Assembly (NCBI GenBank): GCA_021792255.1
Contig: JAJYUZ010000002.1
Coordinates: 64,001 to 128,000 of the forward strand
From: Thermoplasmata archaeon
Lineage (GTDB): Archaea > Thermoplasmatota > Thermoplasmata > Thermoplasmatales > GCA-001856825
Direction: 5' to 3'
DNA: 64,000 bases
Position numbers and translations under genes: made by a program. Shown here one piece after another: positions 384 through 20,925 of the stretch. The notes beneath the pieces were generated by a model. It had not been told where the DNA came from. It saw nothing but the letters and a program-made list of their open reading frames with translations, and made no database searches. Position 1 is the first letter of the stretch, and each line of letters starts with the position of its first letter.

Positions 384-3085
384 GACCAGAATCTTCTGTT
401 CTTGGCGAACTCAACTTCACTGATTAGTATTTTTTCCAACAGTTCGTTTTCTGACCTAGTTGGTACTTCGAGTATTCTGGATGCGCTTTCCGGTCCAATA
501 CCGTGTGCAGCAAGAACCAGGAGAGCTCTTTCTTCATACATTCTCATCAGATGGTAGGAAGTCCTGATCTTCTTCAGTGTCTCTGCAGTCATCTTTCGAG
601 TATTTTCGACCTCGTATGGCTTTATGGGGGCTATTCTCGGGCTGCTGCAGAATATGCATCTCCTCTCCTTTAGTTCCTGCACTCTGCTCTTGAAAATCCT
701 GTGGCAGCTTAGGCAGTAGAACGCCATCTCCTCAGAAAGAAGTCTCTTTCTTACAGCAGAGAGTATTGGTGCCGTAGGTCTTATCGGCATCATCTTCTCC
801 TTCAGGCTGTTCATGTAGAGCTTGGATGAACTGGAAAACGCTCCTTTCACCTCTATAGCCATTTTTCCCGATGAAATCATCTCGCCTATTTTGGAGAGAT
901 TTTCGACATCAAGGTAGTCCCACTTGAATTTCTCAAGGGCTTCCTTGAAGAATGGGGTGTCCCTGTAGGAAGAAAAGATTCTCTCTATTCTTATTCTAGT
1001 GTAGTCGCTCTCCTTCGATAACACGCCAAATTTTTTTGCAACATTCACAGTGCTGTACTGAAACGTCCTTGATTTTTCAACGTACCTGTCGAGATTTTGA
1101 AATTCATCTTGCATCTGTTCTAGGATCTCTACAACCTCTTCGGTCCTGTACCGCATATTACCCTGGATAACTATGTGATAAGGAGAATTGTCAAAGAGGA
1201 ATGACTCTCCGTACTTCTCGGAGAGCTTGAAAGTGATGATGAGAGCCAGGGTGTAATTGACCTTTGTTCCAGCGGTGAGCTGGATGACTGAAGTGACACC
1301 CTCCTTTTCCAGTCTCAGCAATTGGTCATTTGCTGTACTCTTCCTGAAATCCCTTACTTTTTCCTTCGTAAACTCATCAAGATTATTGTCCAAAACGCCT
1401 TCCCTCCTTTCTCTACCTACCTCCATCGCGATCTCGAATGGCACGGGGATTTCCTCTCCAGACCAACTTGGAGGAACGGAAATACCTTGGATGAAATCAA
1501 CGTAGATGTATCTCTCCTTTATTCCGAGAACCCTCCAAGTGCTTCCCTTCAGAGTGAACGTCGAACCAACATCGATCTCAGAGGCTACATATCCTTCATC
1601 CAGAAATCCGATGATTTTAGAAGTACTCGATTCTTTCACGACGTATCTCTTCTCGTCCGGAATCATCGAAATATTTTCTATGAAATATTTCAGCGTTCTT
1701 CCGCTCTTTCGGACGACTTTCGATTCAGGGTCGTATCTGATGACGTAAATTGAGGAAAGAAATACAAGGAGCGATTCGAACTCTTCTCTAGTCAAGGTGC
1801 TGAAATTTTTGATTCTTCTGAAAATATCAAGTGCACTGTCCACACCGACCTGCCTCTCAGCATTGACTAGGGCCATGATTTGATTTGCTACCACGATTAA
1901 CGGATTCTCTCTTATTTTGACGTTCTCAATCGAATTCCGTTCTGCGAACTTGGAGATCACCCCTCCTTCTTCCGCCTCAATCTCATTCATCGCTACAATC
2001 ATTCCCTTGGAGGTTTCCGCCAGCCTGTGCTTACCTCTTCCAACTCTCTGCACCAGCCTTATGACTTGCCTCGGAGAATTGACCTGGGCAACGAAATCTA
2101 CGCTTCCAACGTCTATGCCCAATTCCATGCTAGACGTGCAAATTATTCCCTTTAACTTACCTTTCTTGAAATCTTCCTCAATCTTTGTCCTTACATCCTT
2201 TCCTAGAGAACCGTGGTGCACTTCTACCAATATTTTTTCGTCGACCAAACGGAGTCTCATTACAAGGTCTTCAGCCGTTGCCCTTGTATTTGAAAAGACA
2301 ATGAACTGTTTGCCAGAGCTATACAATTTCATTATGTAATCTACAATCTGTGCATAATTTTCGTCCGATCCAATGATATCTCTGAAAGAAGGGAGTGCAT
2401 CTTTAGGCATCGAGACGCTGATTTCATAACGCTTGGAAACTCCAGCCTTCAATACCTTGTATTCGCTATCGAAGAACAGATTTTTTGAGACCTCCTCTGG
2501 GTTGCCTATCGTAGCCGAGATTGCAATTATCTTAAACTCAGGAGCTATTTCTCTCATCCTTGAAAGTCCGACCATCAACTGCCATCCTCTCTCGTCGTTC
2601 AGAAGTTCATGGACCTCGTCTATTATCACGTACCTGACGGTTTTCAGATGGTTCCTGATCTTCTTCCCACTCACGATGAGCTGCAGGGTCTCAGGGGTCG
2701 TGATTAGCACCTGCGGCGGATGCAATAACTGATATCTTCTCTCACTTTCGCTGCTATCACCGTGCCTCACTCCAACCTCGAGCCCGAATGCTTTACCATA
2801 AAACTCTATTCTTGATAGCACATCTCTGTTAAGCGCTCTTAAAGGTGTGATGTATATGGCGCCAAATCCACGTATCTGCTCTTTAATCTCTCGCAGTCTG
2901 AAGAAAACAGGAAGAACAGCTGCTTCCGTTTTACCGCTACCAGTTGGCGATGTGAGTAGGACGTTGTGATTCTTCAGGATTTCCGGAATTCCTATCTTTT
3001 GAGGTTCCGTAAAGGCGGTGAATCCCCTCTCTCTGAGAACTGCGAGAAGCTTTTTCTCCACTTCCACCTCAGATAGTCCTCCCAT
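380..3085 (-). CDS. lhr: Lhr-family SF2 ATP-dependent helicase with C-terminal Cys-rich (CxxC...CxxC) region
   Basis: SPTGSGKT, YITPLRALNRD, TTPETL, DEVH, HHGSL, ELGIDVG, QRVGR, PSWSGE; C-terminal CLSC...CIFC. Confidence 0.92.
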   Translation of the reverse strand: MGGLSEVEVEKKLLAVLRERGFTAFTEPQKIGIPEILKNHNVLLTSPTGSGKTEAAVLPVFFRLREIKEQIRGFGAIYITPLRALNRDVLSRIEFYGKAFGLEVGVRHGDSSESERRYQLLHPPQVLITTPETLQLIVSGKKIRNHLKTVRYVIIDEVHELLNDERGWQLMVGLSRMREIAPEFKIIAISATIGNPEEVSKNLFFDSEYKVLKAGVSKRYEISVSMPKDALPSFRDIIGSDENYAQIVDYIMKLYSSGKQFIVFSNTRATAEDLVMRLRLVDEKILVEVHHGSLGKDVRTKIEEDFKKGKLKGIICTSSMELGIDVGSVDFVAQVNSPRQVIRLVQRVGRGKHRLAETSKGMIVAMNEIEAEEGGVISKFAERNSIENVKIRENPLIVVANQIMALVNAERQVGVDSALDIFRRIKNFSTLTREEFESLLVFLSSIYVIRYDPESKVVRKSGRTLKYFIENISMIPDEKRYVVKESSTSKIIGFLDEGYVASEIDVGSTFTLKGSTWRVLGIKERYIYVDFIQGISVPPSWSGEEIPVPFEIAMEVGRERREGVLDNNLDEFTKEKVRDFRKSTANDQLLRLEKEGVTSVIQLTAGTKVNYTLALIITFKLSEKYGESFLFDNSPYHIVIQGNMRYRTEEVVEILEQMQDEFQNLDRYVEKSRTFQYSTVNVAKKFGVLSKESDYTRIRIERIFSSYRDTPFFKEALEKFKWDYLDVENLSKIGEMISSGKMAIEVKGAFSSSSKLYMNSLKEKMMPIRPTAPILSAVRKRLLSEEMAFYCLSCHRIFKSRVQELKERRCIFCSSPRIAPIKPYEVENTRKMTAETLKKIRTSYHLMRMYEERALLVLAAHGIGPESASRILEVPTRSENELLEKILISEVEFAKNRRFWS

Positions 3086-3174
3086 GTCTTCACAGAATAC
3101 CTAAACAGCTTAAAAATTAGTGCACCAAAATTCTCCCAAGAAAATTATTTAAAGGGTGTCTAACTTGCGCTCTA

Positions 3175-17942: not shown

Positions 17943-18666
17943 GAGCCATCCCAGATACGAGAGCCTGAAGAAGAGGGAAATACTGCTGGATTTTTACGAG
18001 AAAGGAATAGTGACAATCTCCGGATTGATATCTCAGGGAAGAGGGGAAGCCTTCGATTACCTCTTAGGAGAAAAGAGCCAAGATTTCGCCCTCGAGGCTG
18101 AGAAAGCAGCGCTCGAGAAATTGACTCAGTCAAACAGACCCGTGATCTCGGTCAATGGAAACGTTGCAGCACTTGCCGGAGAGGAGATCGTAAGATTTGC
18201 AAAGAAGTACAACATAACAGTTGAGGCAAACATCTTCTACTGGTCAAAGGAAAGAATGAAAAAAATTGTGAGTTATTTCGAGAGCATCGGACTTCATGTC
18301 CTCGGTCTGAACCAGGACGCACAGATACCTGGTCTGGAAAGCGACAGGGGAAAGTGCGAAAAGGATGGAATTTTTACGGCCGATACAGTCCTGATTCCTT
18401 TGGAAGATGGAGATAGAGCAGAGGCACTCAAGAGAATGGGTAAATTTGTCATAACCATTGATCTCAACCCACTCTCAAGGACGTCGAAATTCGGGGACAT
18501 AACGATAGTAGATGAAGTACAGAGGGCATTCACCAACCTGACCAATTTCAAGAAGGAGGATTATTCGGGGAAAGTGAGCTCATTCAAGAATGAGAGAAAT
18601 GCGGCGAGGGTAGTCACATTCATTGGAGAAAGAATGGCCACGATGAATGAATGGCCGGAGTCATGA
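17929..18666 (+). CDS. pps: Phosphopantothenate synthetase (4-phosphopantoate--beta-alanine ligase)
   Basis: HPRYESL, GRGEAFDYLLGE, SVNGN, PLEDGDR, IDLNPLSRT. Confidence 0.95.
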   Translation: MEVPKSHPRYESLKKREILLDFYEKGIVTISGLISQGRGEAFDYLLGEKSQDFALEAEKAALEKLTQSNRPVISVNGNVAALAGEEIVRFAKKYNITVEANIFYWSKERMKKIVSYFESIGLHVLGLNQDAQIPGLESDRGKCEKDGIFTADTVLIPLEDGDRAEALKRMGKFVITIDLNPLSRTSKFGDITIVDEVQRAFTNLTNFKKEDYSGKVSSFKNERNAARVVTFIGERMATMNEWPES

Positions 18667-19080
18667 CCTCGTTTTTAGCATCTTTATAATCTTTCTTGTG
18701 CCATTGAATTCGCTTTCAGAATACTGGGAGATCCTTACAACCTTCAGGTCAATTCCCCTCTTCTTGCCCTCATTTATGATCTCTTCTGAGTCGAAATCCT
18801 GATCGTACCCTAGTGCGACTATGTTCGGCTTGACCGTAGTTAGAATGTCGTAGATGTTCCCCTCGACTCCGAGAATCGCCTCGTCCACTGGCTTTAGGGA
18901 GGCCACCATTGCTAGCCTTATGTTTTCAGGAATGAAAGGCAGTCTCTTCATTTTTTGAGCAACAGAATCTCTAGCAACGACCACTACCAGCTCGTCCCCT
19001 AGCTTTTTCGCTTCCGTGAGGAAGTGGACATGGCCCGGGTGAAGTATGTCAAAAACTCCCGTCGCAAGAATTCTGATCAT
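18661..19080 (-). CDS. ribL: Archaeal FAD synthase (cytidylyltransferase fold)
   Basis: ATGVFDILHPGH, GDELVVVVARD, LGYDQ. Confidence 0.9.
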   Translation of the reverse strand: MIRILATGVFDILHPGHVHFLTEAKKLGDELVVVVARDSVAQKMKRLPFIPENIRLAMVASLKPVDEAILGVEGNIYDILTTVKPNIVALGYDQDFDSEEIINEGKKRGIDLKVVRISQYSESEFNGTRKIIKMLKTRS

Positions 19081-19108: not shown

Positions 19109-19588
19109 TCATTTCACTTCTAATTTCTTTTGAAATCTTATTGCGTTTCTCGAATCCCCATATGGGGTGTGATAGTAGTCCGGGACAATTTCCCTTATGG
19201 AATATCCATTGCGTTCGTACAGCTTCAGGGCCGATACATTTTTTTCGAAGGTCTCGAGTACGATTCTGGAACATTTCATTTCGATGGATATCTTTTCCAC
19301 TTCGTTCAAGAGGATTTTTCCTACTCCATAACCCTGAAAGTCCGGATCAACCGCAATACTTTCTAGGTGAGACACTTTGGAATTCTTCCTGAAGTAGACC
19401 GTAGCGTACCCAACCAACTTATTGTCCATAATCGAGACTACTGTCACCGAATTGGCTATCTCGAGCATATATCTCAACGATGGATAGTCGTAGGCGTGAC
19501 TTCCAAATGCTCTACCTTCAATTTTCGTTATTTCATCAATGTCCTTGATGGAACCCCTCCTAATTGTGAGTTTAGAAATCTTCGTCAT
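19109..19588 (-). CDS. RimI/Ard1-type GNAT N-acetyltransferase
   Basis: HLESIAVDPDFQGYGVG, NVSALKLYERNGY, YY...NA; ATG 19588 (MTKISKLTIRR) preferred because the upstream part of this frame looks like a by-product of the overlapping acidic ORF. Confidence 0.88.
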   Translation of the reverse strand: MTKISKLTIRRGSIKDIDEITKIEGRAFGSHAYDYPSLRYMLEIANSVTVVSIMDNKLVGYATVYFRKNSKVSHLESIAVDPDFQGYGVGKILLNEVEKISIEMKCSRIVLETFEKNVSALKLYERNGYSIREIVPDYYHTPYGDSRNAIRFQKKLEVK

Positions 19589-19634
19589 CCTCGTCGTCTT
19601 CATCGTCATCGCCTGGTCTTCTCTTGATAGACAC
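19572..19634 (-). CDS. Putative 20-aa acidic micropeptide/leader peptide MSIKRRPGDDDEDDEDDEDF (not in ORF track)
   Basis: GTG preceded by SD-like AAGGAGAGGTG; 11 consecutive GAY/GAR codons with varied third positions; TAA at 19574-19572; TATA-like box upstream. Confidence 0.65.
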   Translation of the reverse strand: MSIKRRPGDDDEDDEDDEDF

Positions 19635-19639
19635 GATAA

Positions 19640-19680
19640 CACCTCTCCTTGTTCGGAATGAAAACTGATTTATTAAAATA
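19640..19680 (-). promoter_or_regulatory. TATA box (TTTTAATAAA) and SD site (AAGGAGAGGTG) for the micropeptide-GNAT-ribL unit
   Basis: Minus strand reads tattttaataaatcagttttcattccgaacaaggagaggtg. Confidence 0.6.
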
Positions 19681-19785: not shown

Positions 19786-20925
19786 ATGGCTGAAGACATT
19801 GTAACCTGTCCGAAGTGTGGTACAGAGATCCCAGTCACTGCTGCACTCAGAGAATCAATAGAAGCAAAGGCAAGCGAACTCTATGATAGGAGGCTCAGGA
19901 CGGAGCTAAACGAGAAGTTGGTCGAGGAAAGGCAGAAAATGAATGAGAAGTTTAGTGAGGAGTACAATTCAAGGTACTCTGAGATAAAGGACAAGATCGA
20001 GGTCAAAGAGAGACACCTCCAAGAGGCTCAGAAGAGGGAAAGCGAGGAGAGGAAGAAGAGAATGGAGTTGGAAGAGACAATCAGAGAGCAAAGGTTAGCC
20101 TCCGAAAGGCAATTTGAAGAAGAGAAGGGGAAGATGAGGGAAAATTTGAGGATAGAATACGATCAAGAATTCAATCTAAAGAGCAGGGAGGTCCAACAAA
20201 CGAATGAGAGTCTGATGAAGCAGGTTCAGGAGCTGAGACAAAAGCTAGAGCAGGGTTCCCAGCAGCTCCAGGGAGAAGTCCTTGAGGAGGAAATAGAGGA
20301 CAAACTGAGGAACGCATTCTCCAGCGATTATATTCAACCAGTACCCCAAGGCATAAAGGGACCGGATCTCATCCATACGGTAAGGAGCCTAGCAGGCATT
20401 GAATCAGGAAAAATTGCCTGGGAAGCAAAGAGAACCAAAGAGTGGAAAGACGAATGGATCGGGAAGCTCAAGGAAGAGCTGGTAAAATATAACGCCGAAA
20501 CCGGAATAATAGTTACCAAAACTCTACCGAAAGAAATCAAGACATTCGGTATGAAGAACGGGGTGCTGATTACCAATTTCGAAAATGCCATCCCACTTTC
20601 AGTCATTGTGAGGACGAATCTCATCGAACTATCACGCCAAAAGAGAATGGGTGAAAGCGGAAATGAAACCAGGGACATTCTTTACAGGTACCTCATGAGC
20701 ACCCAGTTTAGGCAGAGAGTGGAAACGGTGGCAGAAGGAATCGTCAGGATGAAAAATGACATAGAAGCTGAAAAAAGAGCGATGGAAAGACAGTGGGCAA
20801 AAAGGACCAAAGAAATTGAAAAAGCGATGACCAACGTGTCAGGCATGTTCGGAGATCTGCAGGGAATAATAGGACCTACTCTCTCGAACGTCAAAACGCT
20901 CAGTCTTCCGGAAAACGACGAATAA
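19786..20925 (+). CDS. DUF2130-family protein: CxxC, long coiled coil, C-terminal PD-(D/E)xK-like (RmuC-like) domain
   Basis: CPKCG; GSQQLQGEVLE; GPDLIH; WEAKRTKEW...WIGKLK; EKRAMERQWAKR; MFGDLQGI. Confidence 0.88.
   Translation: MAEDIVTCPKCGTEIPVTAALRESIEAKASELYDRRLRTELNEKLVEERQKMNEKFSEEYNSRYSEIKDKIEVKERHLQEAQKRESEERKKRMELEETIREQRLASERQFEEEKGKMRENLRIEYDQEFNLKSREVQQTNESLMKQVQELRQKLEQGSQQLQGEVLEEEIEDKLRNAFSSDYIQPVPQGIKGPDLIHTVRSLAGIESGKIAWEAKRTKEWKDEWIGKLKEELVKYNAETGIIVTKTLPKEIKTFGMKNGVLITNFENAIPLSVIVRTNLIELSRQKRMGESGNETRDILYRYLMSTQFRQRVETVAEGIVRMKNDIEAEKRAMERQWAKRTKEIEKAMTNVSGMFGDLQGIIGPTLSNVKTLSLPENDE

Follow-up and report, generated by a model that had tools for sequence, protein, structure and literature searches.

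The acidic C-terminal tails of SSB and T7 gp2.5, which end in Phe, dock into basic pockets of partner proteins, and the eukaryotic acidic-aromatic mini-protein DSS1/Sem1 is disordered and has been proposed to act as a nucleic-acid mimic on OB folds. Among leader peptides, MgtL is an example of an Asp/Glu/Pro-rich nascent chain that destabilises the ribosome, and in the archaeon Methanosarcina mazei a 23-residue micro-protein, sP26, regulates an enzyme. Here we describe a 20-codon open reading frame (ORF), the micro-ORF, on the minus strand of a 64,000-nucleotide stretch of a Thermoplasmata archaeon genome (assembly GCA_021792255.1, contig JAJYUZ010000002.1, positions 64,001 to 128,000), which we call the window and whose numbering is used throughout. 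Its predicted peptide consists of a SIKRRPG head, 11 Asp/Glu residues and a Phe directly before the stop codon. Judged by its coding signature, the micro-ORF is a real, conserved gene under selection in this reading frame, and by sequence comparison it is a member of a previously unannotated micro-gene family encoding peptides of 19–27 residues in two acid-loving families of the order Thermoplasmatales, namely the window's own family, the I-plasma group (f1), and a large sister family (f7). The pattern of the micro-gene family is a M-x-[F/I]-[I/V]-K-R-R head followed by 11–16 Asp/Glu, a run that frequently contains a single Tyr/Phe, and in most members by Phe at the C-terminus.

Like the tails of SSB and gp2.5, the micro-ORF peptide has an acidic run closed by an aromatic residue at its C-terminus; unlike them, it is a free-standing product of 20–25 residues with its own putative promoter and Shine-Dalgarno sequence (SD), rather than the end of an OB-fold protein, and other residues take the place of its terminal Phe at 18 of the 48 f7 loci examined. 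By analogy only, the micro-peptide would work most like an acidic docking tail, yet its lack of an attached OB-fold protein places it outside that class. The likeness to DSS1/Sem1, an acidic peptide with few aromatic anchors, is one of composition only, and DSS1 is about three times longer. With sP26 the micro-peptide shares a similar size, its having been missed by standard gene callers and a larger protein as its presumed binding partner; it differs in its extreme composition (55–70% Asp/Glu), and no sequence relation between the two is claimed.

In the window, the GTG start codon (19634–19632) is followed by TCT ATC AAG AGA AGA CCA GGC, by 11 GAN codons that vary at position 3 only, and by TTC and TAA (19574–19572), with a TATA-like box ~25 nt ahead of the SD. 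Runs of at least eight Asp/Glu occur just three times in all six frames of the 1,587,011-base genome of the window (G000); that of the micro-ORF is the longest of them and the sole one inside a short ORF, and is therefore more than a chance feature. A longer, 47-codon reading from a TTG codon was rejected, as the TATA box and SD, where conservation begins, fall inside it. Neither the 20-residue nor the 47-residue reading matched any Pfam family at E up to 10, and a profile search of the PDB with an alignment of 29 peptides returned no matches at the same threshold. Three metatranscriptome runs, all from the same study (word share 0.00), yielded a single unrelated contig of 291 nt, which touches the low-complexity run over 32 nt and is uninformative on expression.

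The micro-ORF overlaps the start of a gene for a RimI-like GNAT acetyltransferase, which is followed by a RibL-type gene, and conservation was examined upstream of GNAT orthologues. In a search of relatives with the GNAT at E up to 1e-10, 43 of 60 matched, a count that includes the window's genome; within f1, an orthologue was present in 22 of the 24 other genomes, the two misses being 61% and 65% complete. Comparison of the upstream region of each returned GNAT locus revealed, in all 23 f1 loci (L001, L004–L024 and L027), a 19–23-codon ORF that ends in Asp/Glu-Phe-stop and overlaps the GNAT start, whereas an equivalent ORF was absent upstream at eight other GNAT loci (seven belonging to families f4 and f7, the eighth a paralogue). 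These counts, like those below, are over related genomes, which are not independent observations. The consensus peptide of f1 is M-x-I-[K/R]-R-R-P, then 11–13 Asp/Glu, then Phe, with one Phe/Tyr inside the acidic run in genera g2–g4; the terminal Phe is invariant across the 23 loci, and length differences amount to whole codons only. Alignment of the DNA upstream of the same loci showed a TTTAATAAAT box at a fixed distance from the SD, a C-rich spacer and an SD of the GGAGGTG type, with the variants GGTGA and GGGTG in other f1 genera. The start codons (ATG in 17 loci, GTG in four, TTG in two) likewise lie at a fixed distance from the SD; at L008 (G013), ACG occupies the usual start position, where relatives have GTG or ATG. 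A record named 'Thermoplasmatales archaeon I-plasma' (L162) also carries the ORF-GNAT-RibL locus and is identical over 3067 nt to L014, which belongs to the window's genus.

Coding potential was tested on an eight-codon block, I-K-R-R-P-D-D-D, which lies outside the GNAT start used in most loci. The 23 f1 loci hold 22 distinct DNA versions of this block, and the numbers of extra codon types and extra amino-acid types are 22 and 9 in the peptide frame, 20 and 18 in the +1 frame, and 18 and 12 in the +2 frame. The synonymous spread extends to Arg as AGA, AGG and CGA, Pro with all four codons, and Asp as GAT and GAC. A preliminary description of this locus, made from the window's sequence, had reported the ORF, SD, TATA box and codons, all of which are present on the minus strand, and had proposed selection in this frame, which the synonymous variation supports. 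It had also suggested a search upstream of orthologous GNATs, where the conserved short acidic ORF with synonymous variation indeed recurs at every f1 locus, and had named, among the outcomes that would speak against the gene, the lack of an equivalent ORF in related genomes and orthologues conserving an MTMKTTR N-terminus; instead, the ORF accompanies all 23 f1 orthologues, and the corresponding GNAT-frame stretch changes among M, T, K and R.

These data also bear on the possibility that the micro-ORF is not a gene at all, being a GA-rich repeat, a chance open spacer or a misframed N-terminal extension of the GNAT (MTMKTTRMTK...). A (GAN)n tract is open in two frames by construction, the GNAT frame is open as far as GTG 19642, and the sequence is of low complexity. 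However, the GNAT-frame reading of the acidic stretch drifts freely while the micro-ORF frame stays Asp/Glu, and conservation extends to the start codon, its spacing from the SD and the stop, with lengths that change by whole codons. Moreover, the same ORF occurs where no GNAT follows, stops close the upstream GNAT frame in three loci, and the GNAT homologues of other families start 1–3 residues before an I-R-R/Q-G core, without any extension. Taken together, we regard a non-genic origin of the micro-ORF as extremely improbable.

We next consider how the micro-ORF is joined to the genes that follow it in f1 (Table 1). The micro-ORF, GNAT and RibL-like genes are co-directional in 23 of 23 f1 loci, with 24–41 nt between the latter two; the trio was not found at the GNAT homologues of f4 and f7, where none of seven loci had a co-directional RibL-like gene and one had a divergent one. 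Identity to the window's proteins across the f1 loci is 64–89% for the RibL-like gene as against 38–72% for the GNAT. The best NCBIfam model for the GNAT is rimI, at 76.9 bits and thus under its cut-off of 86.4, and the nearest solved chains are N-terminal acetyltransferases (E 8e-10 to 8e-6); the name RibL is taken from the preliminary description, our own assignment being to the superfamily.

Table 1. Features at the micro-ORF locus, in window coordinates.
Feature	Position	Strand	Remarks
micro-ORF	19572..19634	(-)	GTG start, 20 codons + TAA; peptide (M)SIKRRPGDDDEDDEDDEDF
TATA-like box TATTTTAATAAATC	19667..19680	(-)	read from sequence; putative promoter
Shine-Dalgarno AAGGAGAGGTG	19640..19650	(-)	core GAGGTG, 5-nt spacer to start codon
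RimI-like GNAT acetyltransferase, 159 aa	19109..19588	(-)	Pfam Acetyltransf_1 E 3.2e-20; presumed start, from family alignment
RibL-type cytidylyltransferase-like gene	18661..19080	(-)	Pfam CTP_transf_like E 1.8e-17; NCBIfam cyt_tran_rel above cut-off; 28 nt after GNAT
DUF2130 gene	19786-20925		divergent to micro-ORF

The GNAT ATG (19588–19586) lies in the +1 frame relative to the micro-ORF, and the first 17 nt of the GNAT gene are shared with the end of the micro-ORF, in agreement with the overlap recorded in the preliminary description. In 20 of the 23 f1 loci the arrangement is similar, with the GNAT in the +1 frame and its ATG, which is built from GAT-G junctions inside the acidic run, placed 11–32 nt before the end of the micro-ORF stop. 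No A/T-rich box is present at leaderless distance from the GNAT, and the only SD-like GAGG abuts its ATG. The remaining three loci (L010, L012 and L014, from G009, G011 and G012) have the GNAT in the -1 frame, and TGA codons inside the run close the upstream frame; there is no ATG, GTG or TTG before the conserved L-R-R/M-G core, and a CTG overlaps the TGA of the micro-ORF (CTGA). Their GNATs are otherwise intact, at 67–69% identity. The sequences of these three loci imply that the GNAT start is non-canonical or reinitiation-dependent, and the lack of a canonical start is most easily explained by initiation that would depend on micro-ORF ribosomes.

For f1 as a whole, the simplest reading of the sequences is that the GNAT would be initiated by ribosomes that have come from the micro-ORF. 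In archaea, termination-reinitiation is an established and strictly local process, with usual overlaps of 1, 4 or 8 nt (PMC6728339; PMC10666635), and longer overlaps are rare (PMC10666635). Like archaeal termination-reinitiation pairs, the micro-ORF and GNAT are co-directional and overlapping, and the downstream start lacks a well-spaced SD and lies close to the last codons of the upstream ORF; unlike them, they overlap by 11–32 nt, the upstream gene has just 20 codons, and three relatives have no canonical downstream start. Coupling across the 17-nt overlap of the window is plausible.

Homologous micro-ORFs were recovered from the sister family by pattern searches. Among 401 genomes of the class, a [DE]4-D-F-stop pattern picked out 13 short ORFs in f7. 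The looser [DE]6-X-stop pattern, applied to the 168 genomes of the order, had matches in 90 of them, the window's genome included: 21 of 24 in f1, 64 of 103 in f7, 2 of 16 in f4 and 2 of 21 in f5. Inspection of 46 places from the latter search identified 35 short homologous ORFs, the rest being long proteins or noise; all four places in f4 and f5 fell into this last group, and none of them was a micro-ORF. Our f7 sample thus comprises 48 pattern-selected loci from 46 genomes. The f7 micro-ORFs have 21–27 codons, typical peptides being (M)VSFIKRRDYDDDEDYDDDDEDF, (M)VNFVKRRDYDDDDDYDDDDDDF and MVKFVRFYDDDDDDYDDDDDDDF. An SD-like motif lies 4–10 nt upstream of the start in 46 of the 48, and TATA boxes of the TATAAATA type stand ~21–25 nt ahead of the SD, with the same spacing as in f1. 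Start codons are ATG in 23 loci, TTG in 22, GTG in one, CTG in one (L254, G123) and an uncertain GTA in one; at L077 (G127) the start is ambiguous, and a GTG further upstream would give 26 residues. Synonymous variation is again extensive, with one Arg position using all six codons (AGA, AGG, CGT, CGC, CGA and CGG) among 17 f7 loci; since these were chosen for a shared F-[I/V]-K-R-[R/K]-D-x-D-D-D, their frame-0 variation is limited by choice and only the synonymous spread is evidential.

In both families, the TATA box is just ~21–25 nt before the SD (19640–19680, minus strand, in the window, and at the sister-family loci), so the transcript would begin at or just before the SD and have an unusually short SD-bearing leader. 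Within the micro-gene family, the start codon typically follows the SD at 5–7 nt. Most mRNAs of the Thermoplasmatales lineage are leaderless.

The genes downstream of the f7 micro-ORFs were clustered and assigned by Pfam domains. A co-directional helicase with DEAD and Helicase_C domains follows in 25 loci; we take it to be Lhr-like, the assignment made here being to the Pfam domains. A Pyr_redox_2/Pyr_redox_dim oxidoreductase follows in 15, and at the remaining eight loci the neighbour is a different gene, is convergent, or is missing from the contig, with L076 and L078 showing only convergent ORFs downstream in the ORF listing. The GNAT homologue and the micro-ORF are never adjacent in f7; in the genomes where the coordinates of both were recorded, 13 kb to 790 kb separate them (for example, 51380 against 64693 on the same contig in G030, 1279532 against 844709 in G045, and 1211014 against 899989 in G048). 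Of the 48 f7 loci, 30 have a run of at least five T in the 60 nt that follow the stop, often at a distance of 0–20 nt. In addition, a TATA-like box is visible ~25–30 nt before the start of the neighbour in 14 printed oxidoreductase spacers (L242 being ambiguous) and in many helicase spacers; promoter and terminator calls were made by eye or with simple motifs. Such a spacing fits a leaderless mRNA for the neighbour, and on this ground we take the f7 micro-gene to be an independent unit. Two genomes have two micro-gene copies each, on different contigs and with slightly different peptides (L245/L246 in G111 and L265/L266 in G146). The window's genome has a homologue of the helicase (41% identity) at about 1598–3086 on the minus strand of the window, 16.5 kb from the micro-ORF and without an acidic ORF in front, and a search of that genome for the oxidoreductase at E up to 1e-10 found no homologue.

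The micro-ORFs of the two families were then compared directly. A profile built from 43 distinct f7 peptides alone ranked the micro-ORF of the window first among the 60,373 six-frame ORFs of its genome (E 0.0016, 20.0 bits), with the next ORF at E 4 and the best match in a reversed database at E 12. Common descent is the simpler reading of the f1 and f7 micro-ORF sequences, because promoter-SD-start geometry, length and ending are shared. A second profile, made from 53 peptides (A2) and searched over the 401 genomes of the class, matched the window's genome, five of six other f1 genomes and 25 of 43 in f7, always in open frames of 24–77 codons, and gave no matches in the 351 genomes of all other families of the class (including six of f4 and eight of f5); this search is not fully sensitive, having missed all five g13 genomes known from the pattern search. 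A strict R-R-P-D-D-[DE]-[DE] pattern produced seven matches in the order outside f1, all rejected, five being the C-terminus of a ~250-residue protein (RRSPDDEE) and two chance.

On the basis of these comparisons, we lean, with modest confidence, towards a free-standing acidic micro-protein that would act in trans and that in f1 would have become the first cistron of a micro-ORF-GNAT-ribL operon with coupled translation of the GNAT. In f7, the micro-gene would be a separate small unit with its own TATA box and SD and often an oligo-T tract after it; this separate appearance, together with the TATA boxes of the neighbours, suggests that the product is most likely a trans-acting micro-protein. 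Its poly-Asp tail and terminal aromatic residue may dock on the basic, possibly nucleic-acid-binding, surface of a partner. In f1, synthesis of the GNAT would depend on the micro-gene promoter and on ribosomes translating or terminating on the micro-ORF, because the GNAT start lies inside the Asp/Glu run and is preceded by neither a promoter box nor a well-spaced SD of its own. It is from sequence that we infer translation, action in trans, the mode of docking and coupling alike.

Several observations weigh against this proposal. The docking model is drawn only from analogy with acidic tails ending in Phe, an analogy already made in the preliminary description and, in our opinion, a reasonable lead. 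The terminal Phe is found in only 30 of 48 f7 loci, the others ending in E (six), L (four), D (three), S (two) and I, N or Y (one each), so that the acidic run ends in an aromatic or hydrophobic residue (Phe, Leu, Ile or Tyr) in 36 loci and in E, D, S or N in the other 12. The similarity between f1 and f7 peptides is partly compositional. The overlap between micro-ORF and GNAT is longer than the 1, 4 or 8 nt typical of termination-reinitiation in passages of PMC10666635. N-proximal Asp/Glu runs, as described in PMC9718836 and bioRxiv 10.1101/2021.02.02.429294, destabilise translating ribosomes in bacteria and eukaryotes, and efficient synthesis of the acidic peptide is therefore not obvious. 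Finally, a close co-directional gene lies downstream in 40 of 48 f7 loci (at 4–742 nt) and, overlapping, in all f1 loci, as a cis-acting leader would have.

The last two points would indeed favour a leader acting in cis, in which fragile translation of the Asp/Glu run sets the expression of the following gene, GNAT-ribL in f1 and the helicase or oxidoreductase in f7. We hold such a leader to be possible but rather unlikely, and the same tentative standing applies to the signals that it might sense, Asp/Glu-tRNA supply, cations or pH, with an output through coupling or through termination at the oligo-T tract. Further points in its favour are the position of the T run, which in many f7 loci lies 0–20 nt after the stop, where an attenuator would be, and the f1 GNAT itself, with neither a well-spaced SD nor a TATA box and, in three loci, no canonical start. 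Like ribosome-destabilising leaders, the micro-ORF has its Asp/Glu run within the first ~20 residues with Pro7 ahead, the same holding for all family members, and in f1 it is a very short ORF that would open an mRNA and precede another gene; unlike them, the f7 ORF seems to be a separate unit, given its T tract and the promoter box of its neighbour, and the downstream genes differ. Compared with the his, phe and thr attenuation leaders, the placement in f1 fits, with its overlap and a GNAT lacking a promoter box, but that in f7 does not, with the ORF followed by a T tract and the neighbour preceded by a TATA-like box.

The RNA itself provided no sign of attenuation. The fold of 19655–19540 on the minus strand was no better than those of shuffled sequences (z +0.48; 134 of 200 shuffles folded at least as well), so that hairpins of the attenuation-leader kind were not seen, and Rfam held no credible match at the micro-ORF, only a chance match to a microRNA family (E 0.38, 19 bits against a gathering score of 90). 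Nor do the codons of the run correspond to the function of what follows: the downstream genes encode the GNAT and nucleotidyltransferase, the DEAD-box helicase and the Pyr_redox_2 oxidoreductase, none of them concerned with Asp/Glu biosynthesis or, more widely, Asp/Glu metabolism. Furthermore, one sensor would have to serve three unrelated downstream genes, the f7 neighbours probably have leaderless transcripts of their own, judging from their TATA-like boxes as seen by eye, and downstream of at least L076 and L078 the ORF listing shows nothing but convergent ORFs. Nor would a simple codon-run sensor call for conservation of the head or for the aromatic residue that usually ends the peptide, though arrest peptides can be sequence-specific.

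The preliminary description had also envisaged a dedicated peptide-GNAT module, with the peptide as leader, substrate or inhibitor. A partner of this kind, whether a substrate for N-terminal or Lys acetylation, an inhibitor or a subunit-like regulator, would accord with the overlap of the two genes at 23 of 23 f1 loci, with the RimI/NAT-like character of the GNAT and with the enrichment of short overlaps among genes for complex subunits noted in PMC10666635. However, the linkage is confined to f1, the f7 micro-gene never being next to a GNAT homologue and none of the seven f4 and f7 GNATs having the ORF upstream, so that the module as such is not upheld. The potential acceptor residues vary as well: position 2, where a Met-Ser N-terminus had been put forward as a NatA/Ard1 substrate, is Ser in only 10 of the 23 f1 peptides (otherwise Y, N, L, E, D or P) and mostly Val in f7, and the Lys of the head is Arg in L021, L023, L024 and L027. 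In addition, the GNAT evolves fast, and the peptide and RibL-like gene are better kept. We therefore consider a dedicated GNAT partner very unlikely. A toxin-antitoxin pair with a GNAT toxin, of the TacT/AtaT type, was likewise rejected, as the peptide has no Pfam match, and so no RHH-type domain, and the locus is vertically conserved together with the RibL-like gene in 23 of 23 cases.

Returning to the free-standing micro-protein, a more specific and in our estimate doubtful version would be a 'detached acidic tail', in which a poly-Asp nucleic-acid mimic of ~22 residues regulates a basic DNA- or RNA-handling protein in trans, with its fragile translation gating GNAT-RibL in the I-plasma group. 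Candidate targets would be the neighbouring DEAD-box repair helicase or an HU-type chromatin protein of the order, a protein known from Thermoplasmatales. As a partner in phylogenetic profiling, the HU-type protein (PF00216) was rejected, since it occurs in 108 of 108 genomes of the order and so does not track the micro-gene. Its copy number is two in all 11 f4 and about 10 of 15 f5 genomes, and one in all 66 f7 and most f1 genomes; this is inverse to the distribution of the micro-gene and may simply reflect phylogeny. No Pfam SSB match was found in five genomes of the order, a result of little weight because the model matches only bacteria among the controls. If the detached-tail version were true, few known conserved gene products would be as short and as acidic as the peptide, and control by an Asp/Glu-run nascent chain would have its first archaeal case, by way of a dual-coding overlap; we know of no description of ribosome destabilisation by Asp/Glu runs in archaea.

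The micro-gene family lies below the length limit of gene callers, Prodigal calling nothing under 90 nt, and is probably invisible in every annotated Thermoplasmatales genome. Full-text searches with peptide strings and topic searches found no earlier description, with supplements and ~1.7 million PMC articles outside their reach. Its TATA box, strong SD and purifying selection are the marks of a well-expressed gene, yet the predicted product is little beyond a dozen aspartates, and either archaeal ribosomes cope with the acidic run or translational fragility is its purpose. The f1 arrangement would show how a GNAT-ribL operon can capture the promoter and ribosome flow of a micro-gene. The sister family f7 includes several complete single-contig genomes, and if any of these are from cultivated strains, the peptide, its partner and the coupling would be testable at the bench.

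Lastly, contigs were scanned with a [DE]3-D-[DE]-D-F-stop pattern. Among the matches listed, 79 of 80 were rejected as not being related micro-ORFs, the useful one being the I-plasma record described above; the unrelated ones were mostly bacterial C-termini of longer proteins, with a few unrelated short ORFs. Also among the matches listed (L086–L165), many bacterial proteins of ~110–200 residues end in an acidic run followed by Phe, in Bacteroidota (especially Chitinophagaceae) and Clostridia, and a Methanosarcinales metagenome-assembled genome (L098) carries a long repetitive Asp/Glu/Tyr ORF.

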